Below are positions 6,659-60,567 of a stretch of DNA of 64,000 nucleotides, one piece after another. The DNA lies in NCBI GenBank assembly GCA_030622635.1, contig JAUXFX010000001.1:306-64305 (forward strand), in the 5' to 3' direction. This stretch comes from Bacteroidota bacterium. Lineage in GTDB: Bacteria > Bacteroidota > Bacteroidia > Bacteroidales > JADFUO01. The notes under the pieces were generated by a model, which was not told the DNA's origin, ran no database searches, and saw only the letters and a list, made by a program, of their open reading frames with translations. A program made the position numbers and the translations under genes. Every line of letters begins with the position of its first letter. Position 1 is the first letter of the stretch.

Positions 6659-6699
6659 CAAACGTCAAACGTCGAACGTCAAACGTCAAACATCAAACC
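6659..6699. repeat. Heptad tandem array (AAACGTC)x6
   Basis: The array reads caaacgtc aaacgtc gaacgtc aaacgtc aaacatc aaacc. Confidence 0.9.
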
Positions 6700-6780
6700 T
6701 TATTCGATACCCTTTCCATCCATAATAAGCCAAATACACATAACAGAATATCGGGACAAAGAATGTTCGTTTGTACAATT

Positions 6781-6835
6781 TTCCATTATTCCAACATTCC
6801 ATTATTCCAGTTTTCCAACATTCCATCACTCCATT
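6781..6835. repeat. Low-complexity array built on ttccat/ttccaaca
   Basis: The array reads ttccattattccaaca ttccattattccagttttccaaca ttccatcactccatt. Confidence 0.9.
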
Positions 6836-6871
6836 TGATTTTGTTATTTTGTTATTTGTAAATTTGCAAAC

Positions 6872-9280
6872 ATGATTTATCCCAAAAACTTTGAACAAAA
6901 AATCGGGTTTGATATTATCAGGCAAATGCTGAAAGATAATTGCCTGAGCTCGCTTGGCGAAAAGTTCGTTGAAAAAATGTACTTTACATGCAATTTTGAA
7001 CTTATTAAAAATCTTATTTGTCAGGTTGAGGAATTCAGGCAGATACTTATGTTTGAAGACGGATTTCCCACACAGGATTATTATGACCTTATTCCTGAAT
7101 TAAACAGGATAAAAATTAAGGGAACTATCATTGACCTTGAAAAACTTTTTGATTTAAAATCATCATTAAATACAATATTTCTTTGTCTGATATTTTTTAA
7201 AAAAACTGAAAGTGAAAAATATACTCATCTGAAGGAACTTTCAAAAGATGTGATTATTGAAAAACAATTATTGCAGCGTATTGAGAAGATAGTTGATGAC
7301 AAAGGGAAAATAAAAGATAATGCATCACAAAAGTTAAAAGAGATAAGGAATGAACTTATCAGGAAACAATCTTTTATTGATAAAAAGATCAGTCAGACAT
7401 TAACTGCTTCCAAAAAAGCCGGCTGGACTTCCGGAGATGTTGAAGCAACAATCAGAAACGGCAGACTTGTAATTCCTGTTTTGGTTGCCAATAAACGAAA
7501 AATTAAGGGATTTATCCATGATGAATCGGCTACAGGACAAACCGTTTTTATTGAACCTGCAGATATTTTTGACATAAATAATGAAATCCGTGAGCTTGAA
7601 AATGCAGAGAAAAGGGAAATTATTAAAATCTTTACTGAATTTACAAACTATCTTCGCCCACAGATTGAAGACTTAAAAAATGCTTTCAGATATCTTGGAT
7701 TGCTGGATTTTATTTGTGCTAAGGCAAAATTTGCAATCAGTATTGAAGCTGTAAAACCTGTAATTATTAATGAACCCCTGATTGACTGGAAAAAAACAAG
7801 GCATCCGTTGCTTTATTTATCTCATAAAAATCAGAACAAATTAATTGAACCCTTAGATATAAACCTGGATAATAAAAACAGAATTTTAATAATTTCCGGA
7901 CCAAATGCCGGAGGAAAATCAGTCTGTCTGAAAACTGTCGGGTTAATCCAGTATATGCTACAATCAGGTTTGCTTGTGCCTTTGAAAGAAGACTCCGAAC
8001 TTGGCATATTTAAAAAAATCTTTATTGATATCGGCGATGAACAATCACTAGAGAAAGACCTGAGCACTTACACTTCCCATTTATTAAATTTAAAATATTT
8101 TGTTTTAAATGCTGATGAAGAATCTCTTGTACTGATTGATGAATTCGGTACCGGAACCGAACCGCAGCTTGGAGGCGCCATTGCCGAAGCTGTTTTAGAA
8201 AAGATCAATGAGAAAAAGGTATTTGGGGTCATAACAACCCATTATTCAAATTTAAAATTATTTGCTGATAAAACCTGTGGGATAATTAACGGTGCTATGC
8301 TTTTTGATTCAAAAAATATGCAGCCGCTTTATGAGTTAAAAATCGGGAAACCAGGTAGCTCTTTTGCTTTTGAAATTGCCAGAAAAATTGGTTTTCCTAA
8401 AATTATTCTTAAAAATGCAGCAAAAAAAACGGGTAAAAAACAATTGGATTTTGACAAACAACTGCAACAACTGGAGGTTGAAAAACTTGAAATTGATAAA
8501 AAACAAACCGGGTTAAAAGTTGCTGATGAATTCCTTAGCGAAATAATCAATAAATATGAAAATTTGGTTGAAAAAATTGAAAGCACAAAAGAAAGTATTA
8601 TCAGCAGGGCAAAAGAAGAAGCAATGGAAATTCTTGACGGTTCTAATAAATTAATTGAAAATACAATCAGGGAAATACGGGAAATTCAGGCGGAAAAAGA
8701 AAAAACAAAAAAACTAAGAAAAAAACTTAAGGAACACAAAGAAAAAATCATCAGAAAAAAACATGTTGAACAATTAAAACCTTTGCTTGAAAAGAAAAAA
8801 ATTAAACCTGTTTCCAAAGTTGTTGATACTTCTATTAATGTTGGAGATTTTGTAAAAATTGCCGATCAGGATACTGTTGGCGAAGTAATTGAAATATCAG
8901 ATGAAGATGTTTTAATTACATTTAATACAGTAAAATTCAGAACCCCAATCAACAAATTAAAAAAAGTATCCGGTAAAGAAAAAGTTAAAATTTCCCAAAG
9001 TTCATACAGCAATATTATTAGTGATAAAATTGCTAATTTTAAATTATCAATAGATGTCAGGGGGAAAAGAGCCGAAGAAGCAATTTCGATTGTCAGGCAA
9101 TATGTTGATGAAGCAATTTTACTGAACATGAAGGAAGTTAATATTTTACATGGTAAGGGAGACGGTATTTTGCGTGATGTAATCCGTGAATACCTTTCAA
9201 CTGTTCAGGAAATTAAACAATACAAAGACCAGCATATTGAAAGAGGCGGTCATGGGATTACGGTTGTGATGTTCAGGTAA
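6872..9280 (+). CDS. mutS2: Endonuclease MutS2 (MutS-family ATPase with C-terminal Smr domain)
   Basis: 802 aa. It has Walker A GPNAGGKS, DEFGTGTEP, and a C-terminal Smr-like DVRGKRAEEA...LHGKGDGILR. Confidence 0.9.
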   Translation: MIYPKNFEQKIGFDIIRQMLKDNCLSSLGEKFVEKMYFTCNFELIKNLICQVEEFRQILMFEDGFPTQDYYDLIPELNRIKIKGTIIDLEKLFDLKSSLNTIFLCLIFFKKTESEKYTHLKELSKDVIIEKQLLQRIEKIVDDKGKIKDNASQKLKEIRNELIRKQSFIDKKISQTLTASKKAGWTSGDVEATIRNGRLVIPVLVANKRKIKGFIHDESATGQTVFIEPADIFDINNEIRELENAEKREIIKIFTEFTNYLRPQIEDLKNAFRYLGLLDFICAKAKFAISIEAVKPVIINEPLIDWKKTRHPLLYLSHKNQNKLIEPLDINLDNKNRILIISGPNAGGKSVCLKTVGLIQYMLQSGLLVPLKEDSELGIFKKIFIDIGDEQSLEKDLSTYTSHLLNLKYFVLNADEESLVLIDEFGTGTEPQLGGAIAEAVLEKINEKKVFGVITTHYSNLKLFADKTCGIINGAMLFDSKNMQPLYELKIGKPGSSFAFEIARKIGFPKIILKNAAKKTGKKQLDFDKQLQQLEVEKLEIDKKQTGLKVADEFLSEIINKYENLVEKIESTKESIISRAKEEAMEILDGSNKLIENTIREIREIQAEKEKTKKLRKKLKEHKEKIIRKKHVEQLKPLLEKKKIKPVSKVVDTSINVGDFVKIADQDTVGEVIEISDEDVLITFNTVKFRTPINKLKKVSGKEKVKISQSSYSNIISDKIANFKLSIDVRGKRAEEAISIVRQYVDEAILLNMKEVNILHGKGDGILRDVIREYLSTVQEIKQYKDQHIERGGHGITVVMFR

Positions 9281-9373: not shown

Positions 9374-10456
9374 ATGAGAAAAAAAATATATTCCGTAATA
9401 ACTGGTACAGGTAGCTATATTCCTACAAAGCGAGTTCCCAATAAGGATTTTCTTGATAGTGAATTTTATAATCCGGATGGAATTAAATTCAAGGAATCAA
9501 ATGAAGAAATTATCAGTAAGTTTGAAAAGATTACAGGTATTTTAGAAAGAAGACATATTACCGATAATCTTGTTGTCTCTGATATTGCTTATTTCGCTGC
9601 TAAGAATGCTATAGAGTCATCAAAAATTGACAAGGAAGAATTAGATTATATAATTGTTGCTCAAAATTTCGGAGATGTAAAAGTAAATAATAAAAGGTCT
9701 GATTATGTTCCAAGTATTTCTGCAAGAGTAAAGCATAAATTAGACATAAAGAATCCATATACTATTGCTTTTGATTTGCCTTTTGGCTGCCCCGGATGGT
9801 TACAGGGAGTGATAATGTCTAATAGTTATATTAAATCCGGTAATGCAAAAAAAATCCTTATTATCGGTGCTGAAACCCTTTCCAGAATATCGGACCCACA
9901 CGACAGGGACAGCATGATTTATTCTGATGGAGCCGGAGCTATAATTCTTGAGGCAACTTCAAGTAAAGAACCCGTAGGGATTCTATCCGATACTTCAAGG
10001 TCGGATACAATAATTTATTCAAAATTGATGTGGATGAATAAATCTTATAATCCTGATTATAATGGTGATGAATTATTTCTTAAAATGAATGGTCGTAAAT
10101 TGTATGAGTATGCCATATCAACAGTTCCGCAGGTTGTGAAAGACACTATTGAAAAAGCAGGGCTGATGCTTAACAATATAAAGAAAGTGCTAATACACCA
10201 GGCAAATGAAAAATTGGACGTGGAGATTCTAAACCGTTTGTTTAAATTATATGGAAAAACCAAAGTTCTTTTAGATGTTATGCCTATGACGATTTCATTT
10301 CTTGGAAACAGTTCGGTGGCAACTATACCCACCTTAATTGATCTCCTGTTTAAGGGAAATCTGAAAGGTCATAAGCTGATAAAAGGTGAATATGTAGTAT
10401 TTGCCTCAGTAGGAGCAGGAATGAATATTAACTCTTTAGTTTACAGAATGCCTTAA
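9374..10456 (+). CDS. 3-oxoacyl-ACP synthase III-like (FabH/KAS III family)
   Basis: 360 aa. A Cys-His-Asn triad context is present: FGCPGW, IHQANEK, GNSSVATIP. Confidence 0.78.
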   Translation: MRKKIYSVITGTGSYIPTKRVPNKDFLDSEFYNPDGIKFKESNEEIISKFEKITGILERRHITDNLVVSDIAYFAAKNAIESSKIDKEELDYIIVAQNFGDVKVNNKRSDYVPSISARVKHKLDIKNPYTIAFDLPFGCPGWLQGVIMSNSYIKSGNAKKILIIGAETLSRISDPHDRDSMIYSDGAGAIILEATSSKEPVGILSDTSRSDTIIYSKLMWMNKSYNPDYNGDELFLKMNGRKLYEYAISTVPQVVKDTIEKAGLMLNNIKKVLIHQANEKLDVEILNRLFKLYGKTKVLLDVMPMTISFLGNSSVATIPTLIDLLFKGNLKGHKLIKGEYVVFASVGAGMNINSLVYRMP

Positions 10457-10492: not shown

Positions 10493-10525
10493 AATCCTGA
10501 CAGGTTTTTAAAACCTGTCAGGATT
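10493..10525. terminator. Near-perfect 33-nt palindrome between convergent genes (bidirectional terminator-like hairpin)
   Basis: aatcctgacaggttttt/aaaacctgtcaggatt has 16-nt arms around a single central base. It lies between the fabH-like stop (10456) and the acyl-CoA dehydrogenase stop (10669). Confidence 0.55.
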
Positions 10526-10668
10526 GGTTCAGAAAATCAGTACTATATATTTTCAACCCTTGATTTGTACGATATACGAAACTTTAGTAACTTAAGATAA
10601 GGTTAGCAACCTTGACAATTGTAAATTGCAAAATTTTCAATATACAATTTTCAATCTGCAATTTTCTT

Positions 10669-11847
10669 TCAATGAAATGCCTCAATTCCTGTAATATCTT
10701 CTCCGGTTATCAGCAGGTGAATATCATGAGTACCTTCGTAAGTGATTACTGATTCAAGGTTCATTATATGCCTCATTATTGGAAAATCGCCTGTAATACC
10801 CATTGCTCCGAGTATCTGTCGTGATTCCCTTGCGACATCAAGTGCCATTTTCACATTATTTCGTTTTGCCATGGAGATTTGTGCAGGAGTAGCCCTGTTG
10901 TCATTATGAAGTGTGCCAAGCCGCCACATAAGCAGTTGTGCTTTGGTGATCTCAGTAAGCATCTCTGCCAACTTTTTCTGAGTAAGCTGAAAAGCAGCAA
11001 TAGGTTTTTTAAATTGATAACGTTCTTTAGCATATCTTAAAGCCGTATCATAGCAATCCATTGCAGCACCGACAGCTCCCCATGCTATACCATATCTTGC
11101 GGAATTAAGACACATCAACGGACCTTTTAAACCTTTAATATCGGGCAGAACATTTTCTTTGGGAATTTTAACATCTTCAAAAACAAGTTCTCCTGTTACG
11201 GAAGCCCTCAACGACCATTTATGAAATGTTTCGGGAGCTGTAAAACCTTCCATCCCTTTTTCAACAATTAAACCTTTTATTACACCTTTTTCATCTTTTG
11301 CCCAAACAACGGCAATATCGCATATTGATGCATTGGTAATCCACATTTTTGCTCCATTCAAAAGGTAATGGTCGCCTTTATCCTTAATTTTGGTTACCAT
11401 TCCTGACGGGTCGGAACCATAGTCGGGTTCAGTCAAGCCAAATGCTCCGATAATTTCTCCTGAAGCAAGCCGTGGAAGGTATTTCTTTCTTTGTTCTTCA
11501 TTTCCAAATTTATAAATAGGATACATTACAAGTGATGTTTGTACAGATGCCGCAGACCGGATTCCAGAGTCGCCTCTTTCCAACTCGGTCATAATCAAAC
11601 CATAGGATATGTGATCAAGACCCGCACATCCATATTTCTCGGGAAGAAAGGGTCCAAAAATCCCAAGCTCTCCCATCTCTTTGATTAAATGTAAAGGAAA
11701 CCTGTGCTCCTGATTTGCGTCTTCAATGATCGGTTTTACTGATTTGTTTACCCAATCGCGAATAGCACTCCGGATAATTTTATGTTCATCTGTTAGTAAT
11801 TCATCTGCAAGATAATAATCGGGCGGTGTATAAAAGATTTTTGACAT
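10669..11847 (-). CDS. Acyl-CoA dehydrogenase, glutaryl-CoA dehydrogenase-like
   Basis: 392 aa. GLTEPDYGSDPSGM and the C-terminal YEGTHDIH motif are typical of the GCDH subgroup of ACADs. Confidence 0.75.
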   Translation of the reverse strand: MSKIFYTPPDYYLADELLTDEHKIIRSAIRDWVNKSVKPIIEDANQEHRFPLHLIKEMGELGIFGPFLPEKYGCAGLDHISYGLIMTELERGDSGIRSAASVQTSLVMYPIYKFGNEEQRKKYLPRLASGEIIGAFGLTEPDYGSDPSGMVTKIKDKGDHYLLNGAKMWITNASICDIAVVWAKDEKGVIKGLIVEKGMEGFTAPETFHKWSLRASVTGELVFEDVKIPKENVLPDIKGLKGPLMCLNSARYGIAWGAVGAAMDCYDTALRYAKERYQFKKPIAAFQLTQKKLAEMLTEITKAQLLMWRLGTLHNDNRATPAQISMAKRNNVKMALDVARESRQILGAMGITGDFPIMRHIMNLESVITYEGTHDIHLLITGEDITGIEAFH

Positions 11848-17075: not shown

Positions 17076-17140
17076 TTTTGTATTATACTATTATCCTGTA
17101 AAATTTTATTTTTTTAGTAAAGTATTGGTTTTGTATTTAT

Positions 17141-17204
17141 CAGTTCTCAGTCTCCAGTCCTCAGTCTATTTTCGTTGACTGCCGACTAACTGTTACTGAC
17201 ACTG
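17141..17204. repeat. Syllable hairpin: (CAGTNNN)x4 arm and (NNNACTG)-type arm
   Basis: The arms are cagttctcagtctccagtcctcagtct ... gactgccgactaactgttactgacactg. Confidence 0.8.
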
Positions 17205-17307
17205 CAACTTAGTTTCTTGTCATTCAAGATTCAACATAGAATTGAATTAATTACATTTGATAACGAAATAAAAAAACAAATATTATTGGGCATTAAAAGA
17301 GTATTTA

Positions 17308-17931: not shown

Positions 17932-17998
17932 TAGTTTAATATTAAATTTTCAAGGCAACAAAATATTTTTGGGGCAAAATTAAGAAACTTATCAGGTA

Positions 17999-18118
17999 AA
18001 GCACCAAATAACAAATAACAAATAACAAATAAATTCGAAATATCAATGATCAAATGACCGAAACTGTTTTGGTCATTGAATTTTTGAACATTGTAATTTA
18101 TTTGATATTTGGTGCTTG
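17999..18118. repeat. Syllable hairpin: (AAATAAC)n arm, inner 25-nt palindrome, complementary arm
   Basis: The left arm aagcaccaaataacaaataacaaataacaaataaatt faces aatttatttgatatttggtgctt. Between them is the palindrome aatgaccgaaac-t-gttttggtcatt (18053-18077). Confidence 0.85.
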
Positions 18119-18254
18119 TCATCCATACGGACAAGTTTTGTAATTTTTAATATTTATTTAAACTTTCGGACTTTATAGACGGACTAAATAGCTTGAATTA
18201 ATAATCAATATAAATCCAATTAAATCCTTTTAACGTATTATCAATAAAAATATT

Positions 18255-18262
18255 TACTTTTG
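18255..18262 (+). promoter_or_regulatory. Bacteroidota -7 box TAnnTTTG (TACTTTTG) upstream of the antitoxin
   Basis: It lies 40 nt upstream of ATG 18302. An identical box sits at 26363-26370 in repeat copy 2. Confidence 0.4.
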
Positions 18263-18301
18263 TAATTGAAACTATAATATTAAACAAAAAACATAACATT
18301 T

Positions 18302-18508
18302 ATGAAAGGCATTAATTTTGTAACCAACGACAAGGGAGAAAAAATTGCATTACAATTAGATTTAAAAAATCCTGATGAAAAGATGATTGAATTAATTGAA
18401 GAAATTGAAGATATTATTGATGTGGATTTAAGGAAGAATAGTAGTACAAGAGATTATATTGAAATTAGAGAAGAATTGAAGGAAAAAGGAATTATAAGCA
18501 ATGCATAA
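18302..18508 (+). CDS. Putative antitoxin of the RelE/ParE module
   Basis: 68 aa and acidic. Its stop overlaps the toxin start by 8 nt. Confidence 0.55.
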   Translation: MKGINFVTNDKGEKIALQLDLKNPDEKMIELIEEIEDIIDVDLRKNSSTRDYIEIREELKEKGIISNA

Positions 18509-18761
18509 GGTTAAAATCAGCGAAGATGCAATAAAGGATCTTGCTAAAATCCCGCTTAGATATGCAAATAGAATTGATATTGAAATTCTTAAACTTGCTG
18601 AAGATCCACGACCACGGGAATGTGTTAAATTAAAAGGGAAACGGAATTTATATAGGATTAGAATTGGCATGTACAGAATTATTTATTCAATTCATGATGA
18701 CTGCCTTATTGTTAAAATAATTAAAATAGGTCAAAGAAAAGATATTTACAGGAAAATATAA
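18501..18761 (+). CDS. Type II toxin, RelE/ParE family
   Basis: 86 aa. The pattern KLKGKRNLYRIRIGMYRIIYSIHDDCLIVKIIKIGQRKDIY is the canonical RelE/ParE C-terminal pattern. Confidence 0.85.
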   Translation: MHKVKISEDAIKDLAKIPLRYANRIDIEILKLAEDPRPRECVKLKGKRNLYRIRIGMYRIIYSIHDDCLIVKIIKIGQRKDIYRKI

Positions 18762-18797
18762 CAAACTTAATAAAACATTCCATTTATCTTACCCAAA

Positions 18798-20897
18798 ATG
18801 ATAAAACGGGGCTTGAACATACTCATTCATCCTTTAACTCTCAGTTTGCTGATAAGCTGTATTATAATTTCTTTACTTCCTCCTGTATTTAATAAATACA
18901 AGGCTAAAATCAATGAGACAAGAAAAATTCATGAACCTGAAATCTTTTCATATTATGATTTGGACTCTGACGGTTTTAGTGAAGAAATCTTGTATTATGG
19001 CCCACCTGATAATTATCCTTCATTAATTGTAAGAAATAAAGGAAAAATTATTGATCAAAAGAATTTTGAGGGAGTTTTTACCCCAGGTGATTTTTTTATA
19101 TATTGCGATTACAATAGTGATTCTATTGCTGAAATATTTGTTTTAACAATTAAAAATGATTCAATTATCCTTACCGGTGTTAACCCATATAAGGTTGGGG
19201 AAACTCATTTCATAAAGTTATTCATTGACAAATGCAGTATGTATGATGGTAGATACGATTGCCATGCTCATTTCTGTGACTCACCTGATACTGATGAGAA
19301 CGGTTACAAGGAACTGGTTTTCGGAATAAATACAGGGAGGTCAAAACAACCAAGAAATCTATACTTGGTGGATATTTTCAATGACACAGTTATTAAATCG
19401 CCGGTAAGTGGCACTGCAATCCATATACCTGTAGCTTTTGATATAAATAATGACGGATACAATGAATATATGGGGAAAAGTTGTGCGCATGGAAACTTTT
19501 ATAGGGATTCAATAGATTATCCCGATACACATGCCTGGCTAATGGTATTAGACAGAAAAATGAATTTTTTATTTGAACCCAAAAAGTTTGGCCAGTACAA
19601 AACAATTATAGATGTAAAGCCATTTAGGCCATTTAAAACTAATTATCTTATTGTTTTACAAAAACACCAGGGGACAGAAAACATAGATAACAAGCTTATA
19701 TTGTTTGATTCTAATGGGAATGAAATCAAGGAAAGATTATTAGAAGATTTTAGTGTCATTGAAAATTCATTTCTTATGTCACGAGATAAAGTAAGATGTA
19801 ATGATTTATACTTGTTCCTAAATAATGGACAAATTGAGCAAATTGATTCGAATTTAAATATTGTTAGCAAAATTTCTCTACCGGATATTCAAAATGTAAG
19901 GCCTTTTCGTATTGATGCGGATTTAGATGGATTGGATGAATTTGTCTTCACTGCGCAAGATAAACAAGGTTTGATCATAACAAGAAATGATTTTACATTT
20001 CCTGTTAAATTGGAATTTATCAATAATATGAATGTATGGCCATATTTTTCTATTAAAAGGCAAGGATACGAAAAACCGAAACTTTATACTCAAATAGGCG
20101 GGCAAAGTTTTATTATAGAATACTCTAAAAATCCACTACATCCCCTTAAATACTTCATCTGGATTGGAATATATGTGGGTGTCTTTTTCTTCCTTTTTCT
20201 TTTACAAAAAGTACAACAGATCAGAGCAAAGCATAAATATGAAACAGAAAAGAAGATCGCCGAGCTGCAGCTTAAGTATGTAAAAACCCAGACTGACCCT
20301 CATTTCACTTTGAATATTATAAATTCATTAGGAACCTTATTTTACCAAAATGATCCGGATAAGGCAAACTATATTTTTGGTAAATATGCCCAAATGTTAA
20401 GAAATACTATTTTACGCTCTGACGATATTTCAATCTCTTTGTCCGAAGAAATTGAATATGTTGAAAATTTTCTGGATCTTGAGAAATTCAGTCTGAATAA
20501 TAAGTTTGATTATAAAATTGAGATAGCTAAAAATGTAAATCAGGATAATAAAGTACCAAAGATGCTTTTACATACTTTTGTTCAAAATGCGATAAAACAC
20601 GGAATCAGGCATTTAAAGACCAAAGGAGAATTAAATATCAGTTTGGAAGCAAGTAACAAAAATTACATTTTTACTATTAGTGATAATGGTGTTGGCAGGA
20701 TAAAAGCAAAAGAATATTCTAAATTAAGCACAGGAAAGGGATTGAAGATACTTGATCAAATATTAGAGCTTTACTATAATCTGGAAGGGATCAAGATAAA
20801 ATATGATATTGTTGATTTATATGATAATTTTGGGGATCCGGCAGGTACAAAAGTAATAATTAATGTACCTGTTAAAATTAACGTGAGTCCAGGATAA
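18798..20897 (+). CDS. Sensor histidine kinase: N-terminal TM, FG-GAP/VCBS-like beta-propeller sensor, TM, LytS/YehU-type His_kinase + GHKL ATPase
   Basis: 699 aa. There are five DxDxDG-like repeats (DLDSDGFSE, DYNSDSIAE, DTDENGYKE, DINNDGYNE, DADLDGLDE). A TM segment YFIWIGIYVGVFFFLFLL follows, then TDPHFTLNIINSL and ISDNGVG...GKGLK. Confidence 0.8.
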   Translation: MIKRGLNILIHPLTLSLLISCIIISLLPPVFNKYKAKINETRKIHEPEIFSYYDLDSDGFSEEILYYGPPDNYPSLIVRNKGKIIDQKNFEGVFTPGDFFIYCDYNSDSIAEIFVLTIKNDSIILTGVNPYKVGETHFIKLFIDKCSMYDGRYDCHAHFCDSPDTDENGYKELVFGINTGRSKQPRNLYLVDIFNDTVIKSPVSGTAIHIPVAFDINNDGYNEYMGKSCAHGNFYRDSIDYPDTHAWLMVLDRKMNFLFEPKKFGQYKTIIDVKPFRPFKTNYLIVLQKHQGTENIDNKLILFDSNGNEIKERLLEDFSVIENSFLMSRDKVRCNDLYLFLNNGQIEQIDSNLNIVSKISLPDIQNVRPFRIDADLDGLDEFVFTAQDKQGLIITRNDFTFPVKLEFINNMNVWPYFSIKRQGYEKPKLYTQIGGQSFIIEYSKNPLHPLKYFIWIGIYVGVFFFLFLLQKVQQIRAKHKYETEKKIAELQLKYVKTQTDPHFTLNIINSLGTLFYQNDPDKANYIFGKYAQMLRNTILRSDDISISLSEEIEYVENFLDLEKFSLNNKFDYKIEIAKNVNQDNKVPKMLLHTFVQNAIKHGIRHLKTKGELNISLEASNKNYIFTISDNGVGRIKAKEYSKLSTGKGLKILDQILELYYNLEGIKIKYDIVDLYDNFGDPAGTKVIINVPVKINVSPG

Positions 20898-20935
20898 ATA
20901 AAGAACATAATCGGGTAATTCGTTAAAAAATGGAT

Positions 20936-20983
20936 AATTAACCTAATTTCTAATTGATCTAATTGACCTAAAAAATGACCAAT
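20936..20983. repeat. 48-nt direct repeat, copy 1 (upstream of the four-helix-bundle gene)
   Basis: aattaacctaatttctaattgatctaattgacctaaaaaatgaccaat is identical base for base to 21379-21426. Confidence 0.95.
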
Positions 20984-21019
20984 TTAAAATGACCAATAAA
21001 TAAAAAATAATTAATTAAT

Positions 21020-21376
21020 ATGGAAAAGGACGATATAAAATATGATTTAGAAGAAAGAACAGCTAAGTTTGGAGAAGATGTTATAGAATTTTGTAAAAAA
21101 GTTCCAAGAGACCTGATAACAAATCCGCTAATCACACAGCTTGTTAAATCAGGTACTAGTGTTGGGGCTAATTATTGTGAAGCCGATGATGCAGAGAGTA
21201 AAAAAGATTTTAAACACAAAATAGGGATAGTTAAAAAAGAATCTCGGGAATCAAAGCACTTCATACGAATGATTGTTTTTGCTGTTCCTGAATTGAAAAA
21301 GGATGGACAACCATTATGGCAGGAAGCAAAAGAATTAAATTTAATATTCAATTCAATTTTTCATAAAGTGAAGTAA
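21020..21376 (+). CDS. Four-helix-bundle protein (23S rRNA intervening-sequence protein / Avd-like family)
   Basis: 118 aa. LVKSGTSVGANYCEADDAESKKDFKHKIGIVKKESRESKHFIRMI matches the family pattern (SxGANxxEA ... E..Et..wl). Confidence 0.85.
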   Translation: MEKDDIKYDLEERTAKFGEDVIEFCKKVPRDLITNPLITQLVKSGTSVGANYCEADDAESKKDFKHKIGIVKKESRESKHFIRMIVFAVPELKKDGQPLWQEAKELNLIFNSIFHKVK

Positions 21377-21378
21377 AA

Positions 21379-21426
21379 AATTAACCTAATTTCTAATTGA
21401 TCTAATTGACCTAAAAAATGACCAAT
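21379..21426. repeat. 48-nt direct repeat, copy 2 (starts 3 nt after the four-helix-bundle stop)
   Basis: Identical to 20936-20983; the period is 443 bp. Confidence 0.95.
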
Positions 21427-21474
21427 GTAATAATAACCAAAATTTAGACATTAGATTTTGGGATTTGATTAGAG

Positions 21475-21504
21475 CAATTAGATCAATTAGAGTAATTAGA
21501 AATT
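21475..21504. repeat. Imperfect inverted copy of the 48-mer core
   Basis: The reverse complement of caattagatcaattagagtaattagaaatt is aatttctaattactctaattgatctaattg. This matches ctaatttctaattgatctaattg (21386-21408 and 20943-20965) apart from a 9-nt extra syllable. Confidence 0.8.
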
Positions 21505-21546
21505 TAAAACATATTAGAGCAGTTATAATAAATTTAATGATCAACT

Positions 21547-22149
21547 ATGAAACAAATAACCTGCATAATACTTGATGATGAAAAAGAGGCAAGGGATAGA
21601 ATTGTAATACTTTTAAGTAAGTTTGAAGGTATTAAGATAATTGGCATTGAAGGAGAACCGGAAAAAGGCATTGATAGTATTACTTCAAAAATACCCGATT
21701 TAGTATTTATTGATGTTGAAATGCCAAGGTTAACCGGTTTTGATGTAGTACGTGAAGTCAGAAAAAATAATGTAAATCCAGATTTCATTTTTGTAACCGG
21801 ATATAATCAATATGCTATCAAAGCAATTAAAAAAGAAGCATTTGATTACCTCCTCAAACCGGTTGATATTGATGAATTAAATGAAACAATAAACAGATAT
21901 AAAAGTAGCATTTATACGCGTTTAAAAGAAAAAAAATCTAAACAAACTGATGTGCTCAGTAAGTTCTCTGAAAGGGAAATAGAAATAATAAAGTTAATTG
22001 CCGAATATAAAACAAGCAAGCAAATTTCTGAAAAATTATATATCAGTAAAAATACAGTTGATACCCACAGGAGAAACATTTTAGAAAAAGCAGGGCTTCA
22101 TAAAACTGCTGAATTGGTGGTATTTGCGAGGGAAAATGGGCTGGTATAA
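21547..22149 (+). CDS. Response regulator, REC domain + LuxR/NarL-type HTH
   Basis: 200 aa. It has ILDDE...DLVFIDVEMP...KP (REC) and a C-terminal FSEREIEIIKLIAEYKTSKQISEKLYISKNTVDTHRRNILEK. Confidence 0.85.
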   Translation: MKQITCIILDDEKEARDRIVILLSKFEGIKIIGIEGEPEKGIDSITSKIPDLVFIDVEMPRLTGFDVVREVRKNNVNPDFIFVTGYNQYAIKAIKKEAFDYLLKPVDIDELNETINRYKSSIYTRLKEKKSKQTDVLSKFSEREIEIIKLIAEYKTSKQISEKLYISKNTVDTHRRNILEKAGLHKTAELVVFARENGLV

Positions 22150-22315
22150 ATTTGTTTTAACTTTGTTTGTATTATTTATCTAAAATTAAATCTTTGTCAA
22201 ATATTAAACTATTTCAAGCCCAATGCGTGATGCAGATATAGCCGATACCGAAACACTTTTGAGTTGTAACATCAAAAAATTATTTACAAAAATTGAATTT
22301 CTGGTGTAAAACACT

Positions 22316-22323
22316 TATCTTTG
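22316..22323 (+). promoter_or_regulatory. TAnnTTTG box (TATCTTTG) upstream of hicB
   Basis: It lies 41 nt upstream of ATG 22364. Confidence 0.4.
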
Positions 22324-22363
22324 TAGAAATGATAAAACGGGATAATAAAAATAATCAATTGTT

Positions 22364-22570
22364 ATGGAATATACTGCAATTATAAATAATATTGAGGATT
22401 GGTGGGTAGGGTGGATTGAGGAGATTCCAGGTGTAAATTGCCAGGAAAAAACCCGAAGTAAATTATTAGAAAGCCTGAAAATAATCCTGAAAGAAGCCCT
22501 GGAATTTAACAGGCAAGATGCACTATCAGTTGCCGGAGAAGGTTATGAAGAAGAGAGAATAGCTGTATGA
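22364..22570 (+). CDS. hicB: HicB-family antitoxin (short form)
   Basis: 68 aa. MEYTAIINNIEDWWVGWIEEIPGVNCQEKTRSKLLESLKIILKEALEF matches the HicB N-domain pattern. Its stop overlaps the hicA start (ATGA). Confidence 0.7.
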   Translation: MEYTAIINNIEDWWVGWIEEIPGVNCQEKTRSKLLESLKIILKEALEFNRQDALSVAGEGYEEERIAV

Positions 22571-22761
22571 AAAGAAGCAAACTTCTTAAGTATCTGCGAA
22601 TAAATGGTTGCATATTATTACGTGAAGGAGGAAATCATTCGTGGTGGATAAACCCGGCACAAAATAAACGTTCTTCAATTCCACGACATAATGAAATTAA
22701 AAATGAATCTTACAGCAATAATCGAAAAATCAGAAGATGGTTGGTATGTCGGGCAAATTGA
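22567..22761 (+). CDS. hicA: HicA-family toxin with atypical C-terminus
   Basis: MKRSKLLKYLRINGCILLREGGNHSWWINPAQNKRSSIPRHNEIK is canonical HicA. The last 19 aa (NESYSNNRKIRRWLVCRAN) are encoded out of frame over the next hicB-like gene and do not resemble the usual C-terminal helix. Confidence 0.65.
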   Translation: MKRSKLLKYLRINGCILLREGGNHSWWINPAQNKRSSIPRHNEIKNESYSNNRKIRRWLVCRAN

Positions 22762-22897
22762 GGAGTTTCCAGCTGCAATATCACAGGGCAAAACAATAGA
22801 TGAACTGAAAGCGAATTTGATTGATGCTTTTATGCTGCTTTTAGAAACAAACAAAGAAAGTTATTTAGCAAATACACAATTAGTATGCGATTGCTGA
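22703..22897 (+). CDS. hicB: Second HicB-family antitoxin
   Basis: MNLTAIIEKSEDGWYVGQIEEFPAAISQGKTIDELKANLIDAFMLLLE is a classic HicB pattern. The track start 22691 is also possible. Confidence 0.65.
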   Translation: MNLTAIIEKSEDGWYVGQIEEFPAAISQGKTIDELKANLIDAFMLLLETNKESYLANTQLVCDC

Positions 22898-25562: not shown

Positions 25563-25583
25563 TATTTTATTTAGCGTAAAACT

Positions 25584-25619
25584 AGGCTATCTAAAAAGCA
25601 AGATAGTCTGGTTTTTTCT
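25584..25619 (+). terminator. Rho-independent terminator-like hairpin plus T-run
   Basis: ctaggctatct-aaaaagca-agatagtctgg is followed by tttttt, 22 nt after the stop at 25562. Confidence 0.5.
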
Positions 25620-25674
25620 TATTTTAAAAAAGAAATTGAAAGTGCGTGAAATAATAAATAACAAAGTAGATAAG

Positions 25675-26680: not shown

Positions 26681-26741
26681 CTAATTTAATAAAACCTTCC
26701 ATTTCTCTCATAGCAAGATAGTAAGAAAGTTGAAATTAAAT

Positions 26742-51055: not shown

Positions 51056-51167
51056 GGTGATGGTAAAGGTTAGGAAGCCGGTTTGGGTAAAGGAAAATGG
51101 GTAGGTGTAAAAAAACGTTACCCTTACCTCTAAACCAAACAGGCCTCTTAACCCTAACCCTATAACC
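51056..51167. repeat. Imperfect long inverted repeat: G/T-rich arm then C/A-rich arm
   Basis: The arms are ggtgatggtaaaggttaggaagccggtttgggtaaaggaaaatgggtaggtg and cgttacccttacctctaaaccaaacaggcctcttaaccctaaccctataacc. Shared complementary blocks are ggttagg, gcc, gtttgg and gggta. Confidence 0.6.
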
Positions 51168-56372: not shown

Positions 56373-56494
56373 AAAACTTATTTGTACTTTAGTTTTGAAT
56401 TTTTAAATCAATATCATGAAACATCCATGACAAGTTAATTTTTACACACCCTGTACATCTTATTACAGGGCAAGCAAGGGAATGATTATATAAT

Positions 56495-56571
56495 GAAATT
56501 TGAAATTTGAAATTCGAAATTTAAAAAACTTATTTTAACAGCCTAATTTCAAATATCCAATTTCTAATTTC
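56495..56571. repeat. Syllable hairpin: (GAAATTT)x4 arm and (AAATTTC)-type arm
   Basis: The arms are gaaatttgaaatttgaaattcgaaattt ... aatttcaaatatccaatttctaatttc. Confidence 0.8.
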
Positions 56572-56636
56572 TGAATATGAATTTTTCTAAAAATTATAAG
56601 TAATAGAAAATAAATTAACTACAAGAATATAAACAG

Positions 56637-58271
56637 ATGGAAAACACTTATTCAATATCAGGAAACATAGTTGATATAGTAAACCGGAAAATTTTTCAGG
56701 GGACAATTACCGTTAAAAACGGTAAAATATTTTCAATAACAAAAGAAAAAACCAATAACACAAATTACATTGTTCCCGGGCTGATTGATGCTCATATCCA
56801 TATTGAAAGTTCAATGCTTATTCCTTCGGAATTTGCACGTTTGGCGGTTGTTCACGGTACTGTTGCAACTGTTTCCGACCCACACGAAATTGCAAATGTA
56901 CTGGGAATAGACGGAATTAAATATATGATAGAAAACGGAAAAAAAGTTCCGCTTAAATTTTATTTTGGTGCTTCGTCATGTGTTCCTGCAACAACCTTTG
57001 AGACAGCAGGAGCTACTCTCGGTGTTGATAAAATTGAAGAACTGTTAAAAACAGATGAGATAAAATATCTTTCAGAAATGATGAACTGGCCCGGAGTATT
57101 GTCACACGACAAAGAAGTAATGGCAAAAATTGCAGTTGCAAAAAAATATCATAAACCAATAGATGGGCACGCTCCCGGACTGAGAGGCGAGGAAGCAAAA
57201 AAATATATTGAAGCCGGTATTTCAACCGACCACGAATGCTTTACAATTGAGGAAGCGCTGGACAAAATCAAATACGGAATGAAAATAATAATAAGAGAAG
57301 GAAGTGCAGCAAAAAATTTTGAAGCATTAATTGGACTTATGAGCAAATACCCTGAAAAATTAATGTTTTGTTCTGATGACAGACATCCTAATGATCTTGA
57401 AAAATGTCATATTAACGATTTGGTAAAAAGAGCAATAAAAAAAGGATATGATCCGATTACAGTATTACGAAGCTGTGTTTATAATCCTGTTAAGCATTAT
57501 GGTCTTGAAGTTGGATTATTACAGGAAGGTGACCCTGCTGATTTTATAATTATTGACAATTTTGATAATTTTAATATTTTGGCAACATATATTGACGGAA
57601 CTAAAGTTGCTGAAAACGGAAAAACCTTAATAGATCCAATTACAGATTCTACTCCAAACAATTTTAGAACAAAACAAATAGAATTACAGGATTTGCAGAT
57701 AACACCACAATCCGATACTGTTAAAGTTATTCATGCAATTGACGGGCAATTGATTACAAATAAAATTTCAGCTAAGATAGATGTGGAAAAAAATAATGCT
57801 GAAAGTAACACAAAAAATGATGTTTTAAAATTGGTTGTGACTAACCGTTATGAACAAGCCAAACCTGCAATTGCTTTTATTAATAATTTCGGGTTAAAGA
57901 ACGGAGCAATTGCTTCGTCAGTAGCTCACGATAGTCATAATATTATTGCTGTTGGTGTTGAAGATGAAGACATTATGAACGCCATTAACCTGCTGATTAA
58001 AGAAAAAGGTGGGGTTTCACTGGCAAATGCAGATGAAAAAATAGTTCTTCCGTTACATGTAGCCGGTTTGATGTCAAATAAAGATTGTTATCTTATAGCT
58101 TCTGAATATGACAGTATTGATAAGAAAGCAAAGAAATTGGGTTCAAAGCTCAATGCTCCTTATATGACTTTATCGTTTATGGCATTATTGGTAATTCCTG
58201 AATTAAAATTAAGCGATAAGGGTTTGTTTGATGGTAATAGATTTGAATTTACACCGTTATTTGAAGAATAG
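56637..58271 (+). CDS. ade: Adenine deaminase
   Basis: 544 aa. It has GLIDAHIHIESSML and SDPHEIANV, with the two-domain length typical of Ade. Confidence 0.88.
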   Translation: MENTYSISGNIVDIVNRKIFQGTITVKNGKIFSITKEKTNNTNYIVPGLIDAHIHIESSMLIPSEFARLAVVHGTVATVSDPHEIANVLGIDGIKYMIENGKKVPLKFYFGASSCVPATTFETAGATLGVDKIEELLKTDEIKYLSEMMNWPGVLSHDKEVMAKIAVAKKYHKPIDGHAPGLRGEEAKKYIEAGISTDHECFTIEEALDKIKYGMKIIIREGSAAKNFEALIGLMSKYPEKLMFCSDDRHPNDLEKCHINDLVKRAIKKGYDPITVLRSCVYNPVKHYGLEVGLLQEGDPADFIIIDNFDNFNILATYIDGTKVAENGKTLIDPITDSTPNNFRTKQIELQDLQITPQSDTVKVIHAIDGQLITNKISAKIDVEKNNAESNTKNDVLKLVVTNRYEQAKPAIAFINNFGLKNGAIASSVAHDSHNIIAVGVEDEDIMNAINLLIKEKGGVSLANADEKIVLPLHVAGLMSNKDCYLIASEYDSIDKKAKKLGSKLNAPYMTLSFMALLVIPELKLSDKGLFDGNRFEFTPLFEE

Positions 58272-58384: not shown

Positions 58385-58421
58385 CAAAAAATTACTAATT
58401 AAACATTAAAACTTTTTCGTT

Positions 58422-58721: not shown

Positions 58722-58737
58722 ATCTTATTATAAAACT

Positions 58738-60492
58738 CTATTGTAGCTCCCATTCTTCCTCAATATCCCAATTTGCACGTATATTAATATCGGTTGGGAG
58801 ATAATAGGTTTTTTCGGGCTGAATATTATTTATATAATCTCCTGTATCCCATCTGCCATTATTATTTGCGTCAAGTATTGCTTTAATCAAATATTTGCCG
58901 GGATTTAGGTATTCGTATTTGATAAGCTGCTTTTCCGTAATAAATTTTTCGTTTAATACATCTTCATTTTCATTTAATAATTGAATAATGTAATGGTTAT
59001 CCGGATTATCAATTTTGATATTCAGGTTAAGGATTCCATAATCGGTAAGCAATTTGGTTCGAAAATTTATTATAGTAGTATCATTACTGTGATTTTGTAA
59101 ATCAGTAAAAACCGAATCAGGAATAAATAATTGATAATTGGTGTTTTCGCTCCATTGACGTGATAATTGTGCCTCTCTTTTTACTGAATCTACAAATGTT
59201 ATTTGCGGAGAAACAATTGTGTCTTCACCTTCAATAAGCAGGATTTTAGAAAAATCATAATTTTTCACAGGATATGTAAATTTAATGCTCAGAGGCTTAT
59301 TAATATCTAAAGCATTTGCTTTTACATTTGACTTTATCTGGATTTTTTGTGGTTTTTCCTTGTCTTTTTTAAATCGTTTACCCCTGTCAGGTTTAACAAT
59401 AGCAATTTCAACGGTATCTAAAACAAGTGTATCATCAGTAATTTTTAAAATTAGTGTGTCAACATCAACATCTCTCATCCAGTAAATCACAGTGTCTTTC
59501 TCCGGATTAATCTCTTCAATCTTCCAATCAGTTTTAAACTGATGATTTAAAACTTCAATATTTAAATCTTTTGCAGGAAATTTAAAAATAAAGGCTAATT
59601 GTCCTTTACGGATTAATGATGCTTTTGTAAGTTGCTGTGTGGAATCAATTTCCTGAAAAAGAAAAAGCTTATATAAATTATTTTTAACAGTATCAATTTC
59701 AAGTGAATCATTAAACATTGTTTCATCTGTCAGACTATCAGCTATTAGACTGTCAAAGACAGGAAAATAATAATAATCAGGAATGAGCAGACTATCTGAG
59801 AAAGCGATTTCTTCATTTGGCATATCATATAAATAATTACCGTTTGCATCGCGTAAAGCAAAAATCTTATATGTTTTATTTTTCAAATTGTTCAATTCAA
59901 ATTCTCCTTTGCTATTGGTTTTTGAAACATAATAAGGCTTCACTAAATAAGGGACGGAATCAAAAGGTATGGTATCATTGTTATTAATATAAAGCATAAC
60001 AAATATATCTTCTTCCGGCTTAAGAGTAAATGCGTTTAAAACTTCACCGGTAATTGACAGGGAGTCAACAGTAGTGCCGGTTGAAAACACATATTCAAAA
60101 TTTGAAATGGGATTATTTTCAGTAATATCAGCTATTGCATCACCGAAAAAAATTGTATAAGTAGTACTGTCTTTTAATTTTTCATCAAATTTAATTACAA
60201 CAGATTTACCTTTTGTTTTAAAATCAGGCATGTCTTCTAAAGGAGGTGAAATAATTACCTGGCTATTCACTTCATTTAATTTAATAAATTCATCAAAATA
60301 GATATAAATTTTGTTGGTTGTAAAACCTGAAGAATAATTTGCAGGCACGCAATACAAAACCTGTGGGGGAGTAATATCCCTGGGACCTCCTTTCGGTGGA
60401 ATGGGATTAGCACAATCTGTAATGATTAAAAATACAGCAATTAACAATAATAAATTGAGTAATATTTTTTTAGTATCTATTATTTTTTTCAT
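58738..60492 (-). CDS. Lipoprotein with N-terminal SbsA-type Ig-like domain
   Basis: 584 aa. It has a lipobox-like ITDC, then PPKGGPRDITPPQV...GKSVVIKFDEKL...YTIFFGDAIADITENNP. Confidence 0.55.
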   Translation of the reverse strand: MKKIIDTKKILLNLLLLIAVFLIITDCANPIPPKGGPRDITPPQVLYCVPANYSSGFTTNKIYIYFDEFIKLNEVNSQVIISPPLEDMPDFKTKGKSVVIKFDEKLKDSTTYTIFFGDAIADITENNPISNFEYVFSTGTTVDSLSITGEVLNAFTLKPEEDIFVMLYINNNDTIPFDSVPYLVKPYYVSKTNSKGEFELNNLKNKTYKIFALRDANGNYLYDMPNEEIAFSDSLLIPDYYYFPVFDSLIADSLTDETMFNDSLEIDTVKNNLYKLFLFQEIDSTQQLTKASLIRKGQLAFIFKFPAKDLNIEVLNHQFKTDWKIEEINPEKDTVIYWMRDVDVDTLILKITDDTLVLDTVEIAIVKPDRGKRFKKDKEKPQKIQIKSNVKANALDINKPLSIKFTYPVKNYDFSKILLIEGEDTIVSPQITFVDSVKREAQLSRQWSENTNYQLFIPDSVFTDLQNHSNDTTIINFRTKLLTDYGILNLNIKIDNPDNHYIIQLLNENEDVLNEKFITEKQLIKYEYLNPGKYLIKAILDANNNGRWDTGDYINNIQPEKTYYLPTDINIRANWDIEEEWELQ

Positions 60493-60505
60493 ATTTTATT
60501 ATTTT

Positions 60506-60567
60506 CTTTGCGTCTTAGCGTCTTGGCGAGAGATTTATTTCACGCAAAGCCGCGAAGTCGCAAAGGA
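60506..60567. repeat. Syllable hairpin: (GCGTCTTN)x3 arm and (CGCNAAGN)x3 arm
   Basis: The arms are ctttgcgtcttagcgtcttggcgagag and cacgcaaagccgcgaagtcgcaaagga. They are about 80 percent complementary by eye over 23 nt. Confidence 0.8.

Follow-up and report, generated by a model that had tools for sequence, protein, structure and literature searches.

What are the tandem arrays of short words that occupy the gaps between genes in a Bacteroidales genome, when nearly every locus uses a word of its own? The question is raised by a 64,000-nt stretch of contig JAUXFX010000001.1 from a Bacteroidota bacterium, here called the window, in which a first-pass annotation listed ten intergenic regions with arrays of mostly 7- to 8-nt words and treated them as a single family of structural elements. 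All ten regions hold the words listed, and the spurious repeat-peptide open reading frames (ORFs) attributed to them were reproduced (QTSNVERQTSN at 6659-6700 on the plus strand and MECWKTGIMECWNNG at 6781-6840 on the minus strand). To our knowledge, tandem heptamer repeats, described as short tandemly repeated repetitive sequences (STRRs), long simple sequence repeats (LSSRs), TAACTGA and GGGAATC, have been recorded from bacteria since 1990, and no origin or function proposed for them has won acceptance. Here, we describe evidence that the arrays are best explained not as a single kind of object but as hypervariable repeats of 7- to 9-nt words with LSSR-like slippage behaviour. In the composite reading that we favour, and consider on balance probable, many of these slippage-evolving arrays are the arms of intergenic cassettes that resemble the intervening sequences (IVSs) of ribosomal RNA.

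The window contains about 32% G+C and housekeeping genes of Bacteroidota type, including GH92, type IX secretion system (T9SS) sorting domains, lptE-secG-groES/EL and folE-fabD. Relatives, which are uncultured Bacteroidales/Bacteroidota metagenome-assembled genomes (MAGs) and are designated here by L numbers, were obtained by a genome scan with FolE, the closest being L001, L003 and L002 (98%, 96% and 95% FolE identity); a metagenome scan with GroEL returned relatives at 84% identity or less only. Of the further near-identical strains, L161 covers 18.8-26.0 kb of the window and L203, L201 and L202 cover 44-64 kb; strains at 97-100% identity were recovered through a search for adenine deaminase homologues. 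Arrays were counted with Tandem Repeats Finder (TRF; period 6-16, score at least 40), ORFs of at least 100 aa being masked as coding, and were compared with 200 dinucleotide-preserving shuffles of the intergenic segments and with an order-3 Markov model as a second null.

The arrays are not a product of chance at this AT content. The 9.3 kb of intergenic DNA contain 12 arrays versus 8 in 54.7 kb of coding DNA (1.29 versus 0.15 per kb, about ninefold), and 12 compares with 2.15±1.35 (maximum 6) in the shuffled segments and 1.84±1.29 under the Markov model. At scores of at least 50, 8 real arrays stand against 0.20 in shuffles. As in LSSRs, tandem repeats of a 1- to 11-nt unit whose length or frequency surpasses what the composition of a genome predicts, the repeats exceed compositional expectation. 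The proposal that an imperfectly complementary second arm follows the first, allowing long bulged hairpins, applies to about half of the loci: six fold better than their shuffles (z from -2.8 to -7.5), with periodic mismatches, one per repeat unit. The other seven (6659-6699, 6781-6835, 10616-10668, 20936-20999, 22916-22956, 23138-23269 and 26171-26207) are direct arrays that lack both a second arm and structure; their |z| is below 1.5, and some are less structured than shuffles. Two of them, at 26171-26207 (2.6 units) and 10616-10668, are weak members in any case.

Several conventional identities were considered and set aside. Rfam returned no match in the window at gathering thresholds, and at E <= 1 the arrays were still unmatched, the sole match being an irrelevant long non-coding RNA model within a coding region; the arrays thus correspond to no family catalogued there. 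No tRNA or tmRNA gene and no rRNA was found in the window. The word hairpins were not flagged as canonical intrinsic terminators, apart from one inner stem (18053-18077), which agrees with the earlier remark that most lack a T-run, and terminator-like sites, totalling 10 and 16 versus 10.2 and 10.5 in shuffles, are not enriched. A single dispersed family inside the window was likewise ruled out, as the words all differ between loci; self-BLAST yields only the duplicate of a cassette arm, a paralogue of a toxin-antitoxin module and an intragenic 156-nt tandem repeat. A shared, non-random design with different sequences, distinct from intrinsic terminators, is thereby supported, and what had been seen as one homogeneous family of in-situ structural elements comprises instead both plain slippage arrays and insertion elements.

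The strongest hairpin of the window (21379-21504; minimum free energy (MFE) -34.8 kcal/mol, z = -7.5 / -6.5) is part of such an insertion, which the first-pass annotation missed in listing the ctaatt blocks as mere arrays. On the plus strand, copy A of a 5' arm, made of CTAATT words with period 9 followed by a (AAAATGACCAAT)x2 duplication (20936-20999), precedes a gene encoding a 118-aa four-helix-bundle (4HB) protein (21020-21376; PF05635, 23S_rRNA_IVP, E = 4e-10; TIGR02436, E = 5e-16), and this cargo gene is followed by copy B of the 5' arm, a loop, a conserved TTGGGATTTGATTAG box and a 3' arm of AATTAG words (21379-21504). A 62-nt direct duplicate (20936-20996 versus 21379-21440, 95% identical) brackets the 4HB gene, and the gene splits a histidine-kinase/response-regulator pair. 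Downstream, after a HicB-like gene, a solitary block resembling the 3' arm (TTTGATTAG plus AATTAG words; 22916-22956, plus strand), which is kept in L161, is probably the remnant of a second cassette.

The same arm-ORF-arm'-loop-arm layout recurs in L161, L170 and L175. A search with the 4HB protein found about 8000 homologues; those listed (at least 120) are 78-97% identical, and among these matches the sources are Bacteroidetes, Ignavibacterium, Patescibacteria, Daviesbacteria and Levybacteria, with many on very short contigs. We compared nine independent host contexts: the histidine kinase-response regulator pair, type IV secretion system pilin genes, glycogen synthase-GH57, an ATP synthase operon, a short-chain dehydrogenase/reductase-thiolase pair in a complete Ignavibacterium genome, T9SS genes, priA-def, nhaA and L161. 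In every one the 4HB gene is co-oriented with both neighbours, CTAATT occurs one to three times in forward and never in reverse orientation just upstream of its ATG, and AATTAG occurs two to five times downstream, usually behind the TTGGGATTTGATTAG box. The downstream arm stops 6-21 nt short of the next host ATG in five of the nine, and all nine cassettes lie between protein-coding genes, not in rRNA. This common arm layout argues that the CTAATT/AATTAG arms are part of a conserved unit that appears to spread horizontally as a cassette. No close relative of the cassette was found in viral contigs. In Ignavibacterium CP070637 (L181), the CTAATT cassette sits inside outer heptamer arrays, TACGATT-like upstream (668-700) and (ATCGTAT)3 downstream (1350-1380); word hairpins are therefore nested.

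A second gene family leads to a hairpin at the other end of the window. The 60.5-kb hairpin (60504-60567, minus strand; z = -4.3 / -5.2), with GCGTCTTN and CGCNAAGN arms, forms a stem of 3-bp helices with a 1x1 mismatch at each fourth position and, read on the gene strand, begins 22 nt past a polysaccharide deacetylase stop codon and ends 12 nt ahead of the ATG of a Big_5 gene. In L203, whose adenine deaminase is about 100% identical to that of the window, the same site is occupied by a GxxExxY gene (PF13366/TIGR04256) with CTTTGTGAAC arrays on both sides and CACAAAG arrays, again in the arm-ORF-arm'-loop-arm order. The window words are CTTTGCG and CGCAAAG, and in each unit a C/T difference from L203 in one arm has its G/A counterpart in the opposite arm, such that the word change, GCG/CGC versus GTG/CAC, is concerted on both arms. 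The 60.5-kb hairpin, from this comparison of the two strains, appears to be the gene-less counterpart of the L203 cassette, a relationship that the first-pass annotation had overlooked. At the same site L201 and L202 carry an ORF6N (KilA-N/Bro-like) gene and no hairpin; the gap between the deacetylase and Big_5 genes (window 60493-60588) is an insertion hotspot, with three different contents in the window, in L203 and in L201/L202. Elsewhere in the window, at 2349-3200, a Bro-N gene stands alone between two genes.

In Bacteroidota, Cyanobacteria and the Candidate Phyla Radiation (CPR), few unexplained small genes are as common as those for four-helix-bundle and GxxExxY proteins. As general companions of the arrays 4HB genes were rejected, since no second PF05635 gene occurs in 2.3 Mb of related loci, and the association was therefore tested from the gene side. 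Distant relatives of the window 4HB gene in cyanobacteria have heptamer flanks: (TTCAAAA)4 upstream and (TTTTGAA)4 downstream on replicon pNFSY05 of Nostoc flagelliforme, (GTCGGAR)4 and (CGACYTC)5 in N. punctiforme, (TTCGTAA)2(TTTGGAA)6 and (TTACGAA)4 in Dolichospermum, and multilayer heptamers in Planktothrix. GxxExxY genes of Bacteroides finegoldii and Bernardetia have CACAGAG and CTCTGTG as flanking words. When 4HB and GxxExxY contexts, these named replicons included, were scored uniformly, inverted flank complementarity reached z >= 5 in 11 of 19 and direct-repeat flanks did so in 8 of 19, and for most flanks the best period was 7 or 9. Of the 44 ordinary genes of the window that were scored, the 4HB gene alone attained z >= 5 (z = 7.3 for its flank complementarity). 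The arrays also generate N-terminal extensions of genes, such as a start reading VNLVVNLF... in L203. In the literature searched, no paper links the 4HB or GxxExxY families to word-array arms.

A third insertion carries no gene. The 56.5-kb hairpin, though the first-pass annotation missed this, appears to belong to a gene-less dispersed element of about 225 nt (56414-56639, plus strand) that inserts at start codons, here ending at the adenine-deaminase ATG. The element opens with a 5' mini-ORF (ATG AAA CAT CCA TGA), to which a small G+C stem (56451-56479) and then the heptamer hairpin (56494-56572) succeed, and closes with an A-rich leader. The hairpin, with (GAAATTT)4 and (AAATTTC-like)4 arms (z = -2.8 / -4.4), pairs 6 bp with one mismatch per heptamer, and its inverted arrays are internal to the element rather than terminal. 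In L001 and in L003 a copy lies upstream of a galE-like gene, and L003 has another one upstream of a third gene; in all, about 97 kb of close relatives contain four copies, distributed over three different downstream genes. The galE-like gene of the window (11933) presents the empty site, 'TC ATGAAAATATTAG', and L001 the filled one, 'TC ATGAAACATCCATGA ...225 nt... AAACAG ATGAGAATATTAG'; insertion therefore occurred at the start codon, where it leaves a four-codon mini-ORF and brings a new A-rich leader and ATG. Copies differ in heptamer number and in a 15-nt AACTTGTCCGTATGG indel. Each is bounded by a 6-nt ATGRRA direct repeat, which could just reflect the common ATG-AAA start of genes. Dispersed copies, as in miniature inverted-repeat transposable elements (MITEs) and the hairpin-forming doublets (REPINs) of repetitive extragenic palindromic (REP) sequences, were seen for this element only; for the other hairpin words, 2.3 Mb of related loci yielded no further copy.

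The composite reading can be phrased as a mechanism. A cassette would open with a word array on its 5' side, could then carry a small cargo gene, and would close with a 3' array of the complementary word; it would insert co-directionally between the stop codon of one operon gene and the next gene's start codon. In the polycistronic transcript the arms would pair, looping out the cargo on a long, regularly mismatched stem. This stem might be processed by RNase III, by analogy with IVSs, or might merely bring the flanking cistrons together, and in either case the insertion would be tolerated. The arms would evolve by duplication and loss of units, words changing concertedly on both arms under the constraint of pairing; such concerted change would give rise both to different words at each locus and to the periodic mismatches. 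Pairing in vivo, RNase III processing and the mode of mobility are the parts of this scheme that we infer. An RNA-level structural role, among those that the first-pass annotation had suggested, is plausible. In folding energy no more than 15 of 25 hairpins favour the sense strand (p = 0.04, with loci that are not independent), a preference too marginal to establish such a role.

Besides that weak strand preference, several observations weigh against the cassette reading. Of the six hairpin loci, just those at 21.4 and 60.5 kb are tied to a cargo gene, and the seven non-hairpin arrays require no cassette. For the cassettes, neither a transposase nor a rule of target duplication nor an excision product was identified, and the term 'mobile' therefore rests on their distribution. 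Some cassettes (L205, L210 and L213) have direct instead of inverted flanks, and in L187 and L162 the order of arm units is not mirror-symmetric, so that the stem would comprise only 6-bp cores with 3x3 loops, which is weak for RNA and fits protein half-sites equally. The word arrays could be protein-binding sites, either for their own 4HB or GxxExxY cargo or for a single-strand-binding protein of the cold-shock or S1 type, their hairpin potential being a by-product of inverted sites. Consistent with binding sites, only the 6-nt cores are invariant in cassette arms, where spacers vary and unit order is not always mirrored; some flanks are direct; and cold-shock proteins, each binding one heptamer, have been proposed for TAACTGA repeats (PMC4679880). 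However, a different word at each gene-less locus would need many specificities, the very ground on which a separate DNA-binding protein per word had already been judged implausible, and the far lower folding energy of six loci than of their shuffles and the concerted, complementary changes of their arms would go unaccounted for. We therefore regard binding sites as a very improbable explanation.

The remaining three hairpins of the window, at 17.1, 18.0 and 51.1 kb, would on the composite reading be lineage-specific insertions of the same element type, as suggested by their resemblance to the others and by insertion polymorphism. The hairpin between folE and the Bax1-I gene (17136-17208, minus strand; z = -3.2 / -3.4) has arm words of CAGTC and GACTG, each with 2 further nt, that form 5-bp helices parted by 2x2 loops. 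Between conserved flanks, the window has 2/3 units (arm 1/arm 2), L001 has 5/4 and L002 has 4/7, and the hairpin is absent in L003, L004 and L012. The 51.1-kb hairpin (51056-51167; z = -3.3 / -5.3), with GGTAAAGG and CCTTACC-type arms, lies between lptE and a conserved 244-aa gene and is kept with small indels in L203 and L201, which are strains 97-100% identical. It is absent in those family-level relatives whose alignment extends to the ends of both genes: the gap between lptE and the next gene is 6, 22 and 29 nt in L081, L084 and L086, and in L083, L085 and L088 an ATG occurs within about 30 nt of the lptE stop. L201 also contains, at about 3700-3835, an insertion of about 140 nt whose position is precisely the start codon of the 244-aa gene; it is accompanied by a degenerately duplicated TTTATAAATGAAC start region, and it echoes the start-codon insertion of the 56.5-kb element.

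The nested hairpin at 18.0 kb (17999-18122; z = -6.9 / -3.7) has outer arms of (CAAATAA)n and its complement around the terminator-like inner stem 18053-18077, and is followed by a palindromic motif, CTTGTCATCCATACGGACAAG. Position 17999 lies 5 nt inside the left edge of a 7.9-kb segment (17995-25908) that is missing at that position in L001, where the folE flank joins directly to a match of window 25909-26102 and a partial copy of the 18.0-kb hairpin is found at the contig end. This position, together with the 60.5-kb site and its differing cargo in three strains, bears out the suggestion that arrays sit at the junctions of accessory modules. L161, which covers part of this segment, has an additional (ATTCAAC)5 hairpin bounded by a 45-nt duplication. 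Within the segment 17995-25908, the 18.0-kb hairpin is accompanied by a ParDE-like module, by the 4HB cassette between histidine kinase and response regulator, by HicAB-like genes, and by a fibre-like and a T9SS protein. One of its ORFs (23399-25069) encodes a fibre-like protein that matches a Peptidase_S74 chaperone domain and the mosaic adhesive trimer family, each of them weakly, and includes the 156-nt tandem duplication (1.8 copies, 88% identity; 23878-24166). In the corresponding island of L161, a Y1 transposase gene (3846-4319; PF01797, RAYT/IS200-like) lies between GGTGCnnnGCACC palindromes where the window has none; these palindromes are unrelated to the arrays.

Two short motifs recur beside the arrays. 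A REP-like motif, TCCATACGGAC, often in the form TCCRTACGGACTCCYTTYRGTCGTAAGGA, occurs in or beside hairpins of different words in close relatives, with about 0.05 exact matches expected by chance; its sites are window 18121-18135, L001 7639, L003 103, 6832 and 8638, L161 5203, L170 about 1950, and the L201/L202 copy of the 56.5-kb element. A 15-nt version of the motif is present in some copies of that element and missing in others. Four arrays of different words start no more than about 25 nt from a TGACAAG (or GACAAGT) heptamer (window 17216 on the minus strand, 18115 minus/18130 plus, 23131 plus and 56428 plus), four of nine window occurrences being intergenic, in a pattern noticed post hoc. 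As shared element ends both motifs were rejected: they are enriched near several arrays in close relatives but were picked out after the fact, and a broader search allowing mismatches gave noise.

Arrays were also surveyed in a pool of the window and 80 related Bacteroidia loci (1.34 Mb). Here too the tandem-repeat census revealed an intergenic excess and a sharp peak at period 7: intergenic arrays number 58 at period 7, 19 at 8, 13 at 9, 10 at 14 and none at 4-6, those in coding DNA peak at periods 12 and 15, and intergenic density is ten times that of coding DNA. A significant reverse-complement partner lies within 250 nt of 49 of the 127 intergenic arrays (about 40%). After folE the words are, by lineage, GGTGCWG, TTCAGAA, GTTAAAT or TTGG/CCAG. 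After fabD, a hairpin that takes up the whole gap, from 9 nt or less behind the stop codon up to 3-6 nt ahead of the next ATG, is present in Prolixibacteraceae-related loci (MAGs labelled Prolixibacteraceae, Tangfeifania, Prolixibacter, Bacteroidia and Bacteroidales); its words are AATTACA, AATTACG, AATGAAA or ATTTTCG, depending on lineage. In this orthologous heptamer hairpin 4 of 31 pairs carry compensatory double changes.

Hairpins that recur at the same intercistronic positions with different words, as they do after folE and fabD, invite the explanation that the hosts evolved them in place, as processing, stability or translational-coupling stems or as non-canonical terminators that slippage then lengthened and beside which small genes landed later. 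The compensatory changes and the slight sense-strand bias in folding energy are compatible with this origin. A terminator function sits poorly with the lack of U-tracts and of any enrichment of terminator-like sites, and in-place evolution does not explain why family-level relatives lack both the 51.1-kb hairpin and the 56.5-kb element, their genes being adjacent or separated by unrelated sequence, why identical elements occur upstream of unrelated genes, or why arms travel with the 4HB gene across phyla. We consider such host-evolved elements an improbable source of the hairpins, although one a little easier to credit than binding sites.

A further possibility is that all the arrays are neutral simple-sequence DNA, the output of a lineage-specific replisome slipping by about 7 nt and producing inverted pairs by template switching, with neither element nor function. 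Replication slippage was among the origins proposed at the outset, and its traces are directly visible as unit-number differences between close relatives, much as in variable-number tandem repeats; at greater distance the same gaps hold other words or none. Orthologous gaps can contain unrelated words or low-complexity sequence, as between rlmN and ade, where L086 has a chain of different 7-8-mers and L084 purine low-complexity sequence. The sharp heptamer mode, the tenfold excess of intergenic over coding arrays, the seven unfolded window loci and the published slippage hypothesis (PMC4679880; PMC4692102) all agree with neutral slippage. Left unexplained by it are the conserved CTAATT/AATTAG arms and TTGGGATTTGATTAG box around a horizontally spread gene in nine contexts, the specific tie of word-array flanks to two small-gene families, the recurrence at separate sites of a 225-nt element whose internal sequence is unique, and the compensatory changes on both arms. 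As an account of the whole set, neutral slippage alone seems to us unlikely, if the strongest of the alternatives to the composite reading.

For the plain direct arrays (6.66, 6.78, 10.6, 23.1-23.3 and 26.2 kb), slippage in unconstrained spacer DNA is the best explanation. One of them is (AAACGTC)x5.9 at about 6658-6699 (TRF score 68; fold z = +0.9 / -0.4). About 40 nt from this array, which lies upstream of it, a 36-aa ORF (6511-6619, minus strand) with a twin-arginine-like signal (MINRRKFLSGSALASMGLLAL...) ends abruptly and is probably the remnant of a truncated gene. At 6781-6857, G-free and unstructured arrays of TTCCAWYA (period 8/16/24) and (ATTTTGTT)x2.5 directly precede a mutS2-like gene starting at 6872; this locus has an MFE of -1.3 kcal/mol over 91 nt (z = +1.1). 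An AATTTTC-based array of period 7/14 (10616-10668) abuts the stop codon (10669) of a convergent acyl-CoA dehydrogenase gene, and at its position L003 has a different local duplication, TTAGCAACCTTGA x2. Between the same convergent genes (9374-10456 and 10669-11847) lies a perfect 15-bp palindrome (AATCCTGACAGGTTT TTA AAACCTGTCAGGATT; 10493-10525), a candidate for a more conventional bidirectional terminator than the adjacent word array.

The direct arrays at 23138-23269, (TTTAACCA)x3.8 followed by TAAAATC/ATAAATC units, are G-poor, form no hairpin and are preceded by a TGACAAG motif; the window has four TTTAACMA units versus two in L161, and the TAAAATC units are ordered differently. The weak array (TGTTCAAA)x2.6 at 26171-26207 lies just past the end of the L001 homology and precedes the toxin-antitoxin-module paralogue repeat. 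In this repeat, which is 91% identical, 18137-18502 corresponds to 26256-26610 and 18688-18789 to 26607-26708; it comprises a promoter region and a 68-aa antitoxin-like ORF, and a ParE toxin gene (18501-18761) follows the first copy.

How do these objects relate to known systems? In its dominant heptamer units and in the differing unit numbers of close relatives, the census agrees with what has been published on heptamer-dominated LSSRs, which Mrazek 2007, as summarised in PMC4679880, put down to polymerase slippage. LSSR units other than multiples of 3 keep to non-coding DNA, as the intergenic and coding periods of the census also show. A class name therefore exists, contrary to the first-pass annotation, which knew of none; cyanobacterial tandem heptamers and heptameric, sometimes inverted simple sequence repeats (SSRs), the latter found in Xanthomonas and Nostoc and varying between close relatives (PMC4692102), had also been named. 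The window arrays share with LSSRs and STRRs tandem 7-nt intergenic units beyond chance, a copy number that varies among relatives and occasional inversion (PMC4679880; PMC4692102; bioRxiv 10.1101/2022.06.06.494920), and the TTTTGAA/TTCAAAA heptamers of Nostoc (bioRxiv 10.1101/2022.06.06.494920) are the words that flank the 4HB gene on pNFSY05. The published cases, however, stress one or a few words per genome in direct arrays, whereas the window has its own word at nearly every locus, about 40% of arrays in arm/anti-arm pairs and a link to cargo genes. The arrays are not STRRs in the cyanobacterial sense of particular heptamers that recur throughout the genomes of heterocystous cyanobacteria, as the host belongs to the Bacteroidales/Bacteroidota and the words differ at every window locus, although no search with the canonical STRR sequences was made. 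TAACTGA repeats of Beggiatoaceae, Cyanobacteria and some Bacteroidetes are likewise intergenic heptamer arrays, which stop a few nucleotides short of the start codons of functionally unrelated genes and are patchily distributed across phyla (MacGregor 2015, PMC4679880), and the 56.5-kb element and cassette 3' arms also end at or near start codons. Those repeats differ in having one fixed word, nearly always direct, proposed as a translational-regulator site, with no cargo genes or hairpins described (PMC4679880).

The nearest relative of the 4HB cassette is the IVS of 23S rRNA in Leptospira, Coxiella and CPR bacteria. PF05635 ORFs lie in such IVSs, which RNase III cleaves at the stem (bioRxiv 10.1101/2024.02.27.582315; PMC2672173). 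Both have the same PF05635/TIGR02436 cargo between stem-forming inverted repeats, embedded in and co-oriented with a host transcript, and both are sporadic and horizontally spread (bioRxiv 10.1101/2024.02.27.582315). In contrast to the IVS, the window cassette is located not within 23S rRNA, at helix 25 or 45, but in an mRNA operon gap between histidine kinase and response regulator; its arms are tandem word arrays (CTAATT, period 9), often with a second 5' arm after the ORF; and RNase III excision, known for the IVS (PMC2672173), is for the cassette a prediction. The intergenic miniature elements Correia/NEMIS, ERIC (enterobacterial repetitive intergenic consensus) and REP/BIME/REPIN provide a further comparison, being often intra-operon, polymorphic in presence or absence, dispersed in many copies and able to form mRNA stems; the 56.5-kb element is like them. 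They have a fixed consensus and defined terminal inverted repeats, whereas in the window a word array that varies by slippage and lies internally makes up the stem, the start codon is the point of insertion and no cognate transposase was identified. The stems of Neisseria Correia elements are RNase III substrates.

Heptamer arrays, rRNA IVSs with PF05635 ORFs and hairpin MITEs in operons were thus already known. What appears to be new is the location of small-gene families in operon gaps between slippage-variable word-array arms, the gene-less hairpins that are their counterparts, and a cassette nearly identical across phyla. A bolder extension, which we offer tentatively and hold to be possible rather than probable, is that the word-array hairpins, together with much of the unexplained heptamer-repeat DNA (STRR-type repeats) of Bacteroidota and Cyanobacteria, are the arms, gene-less derivatives or scars of one widespread selfish class related to IVSs. 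Its members would home just upstream of intra-operon start codons, be rendered harmless by folding out, and encode small cargo proteins (4HB, GxxExxY nuclease) that act on their own arm words for mobility or processing.

These observations provide a concrete link between heptamer repeats and the 4HB and GxxExxY genes, in named cultivable organisms as well as in a metagenomic window. They also affect gene calling, since the arrays create spurious ORFs and N-terminal extensions, and the arrays may contribute to breaks in metagenome assemblies. Flanked genes, gene-less hairpins at the same sites in sister strains and 78-97% identity across phyla point to a compact class of elements colonising operon gaps. 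If the analogy with IVSs holds true, these elements would be intervening sequences of messenger RNA, with a bearing on operon expression and on the biology of RNase III.

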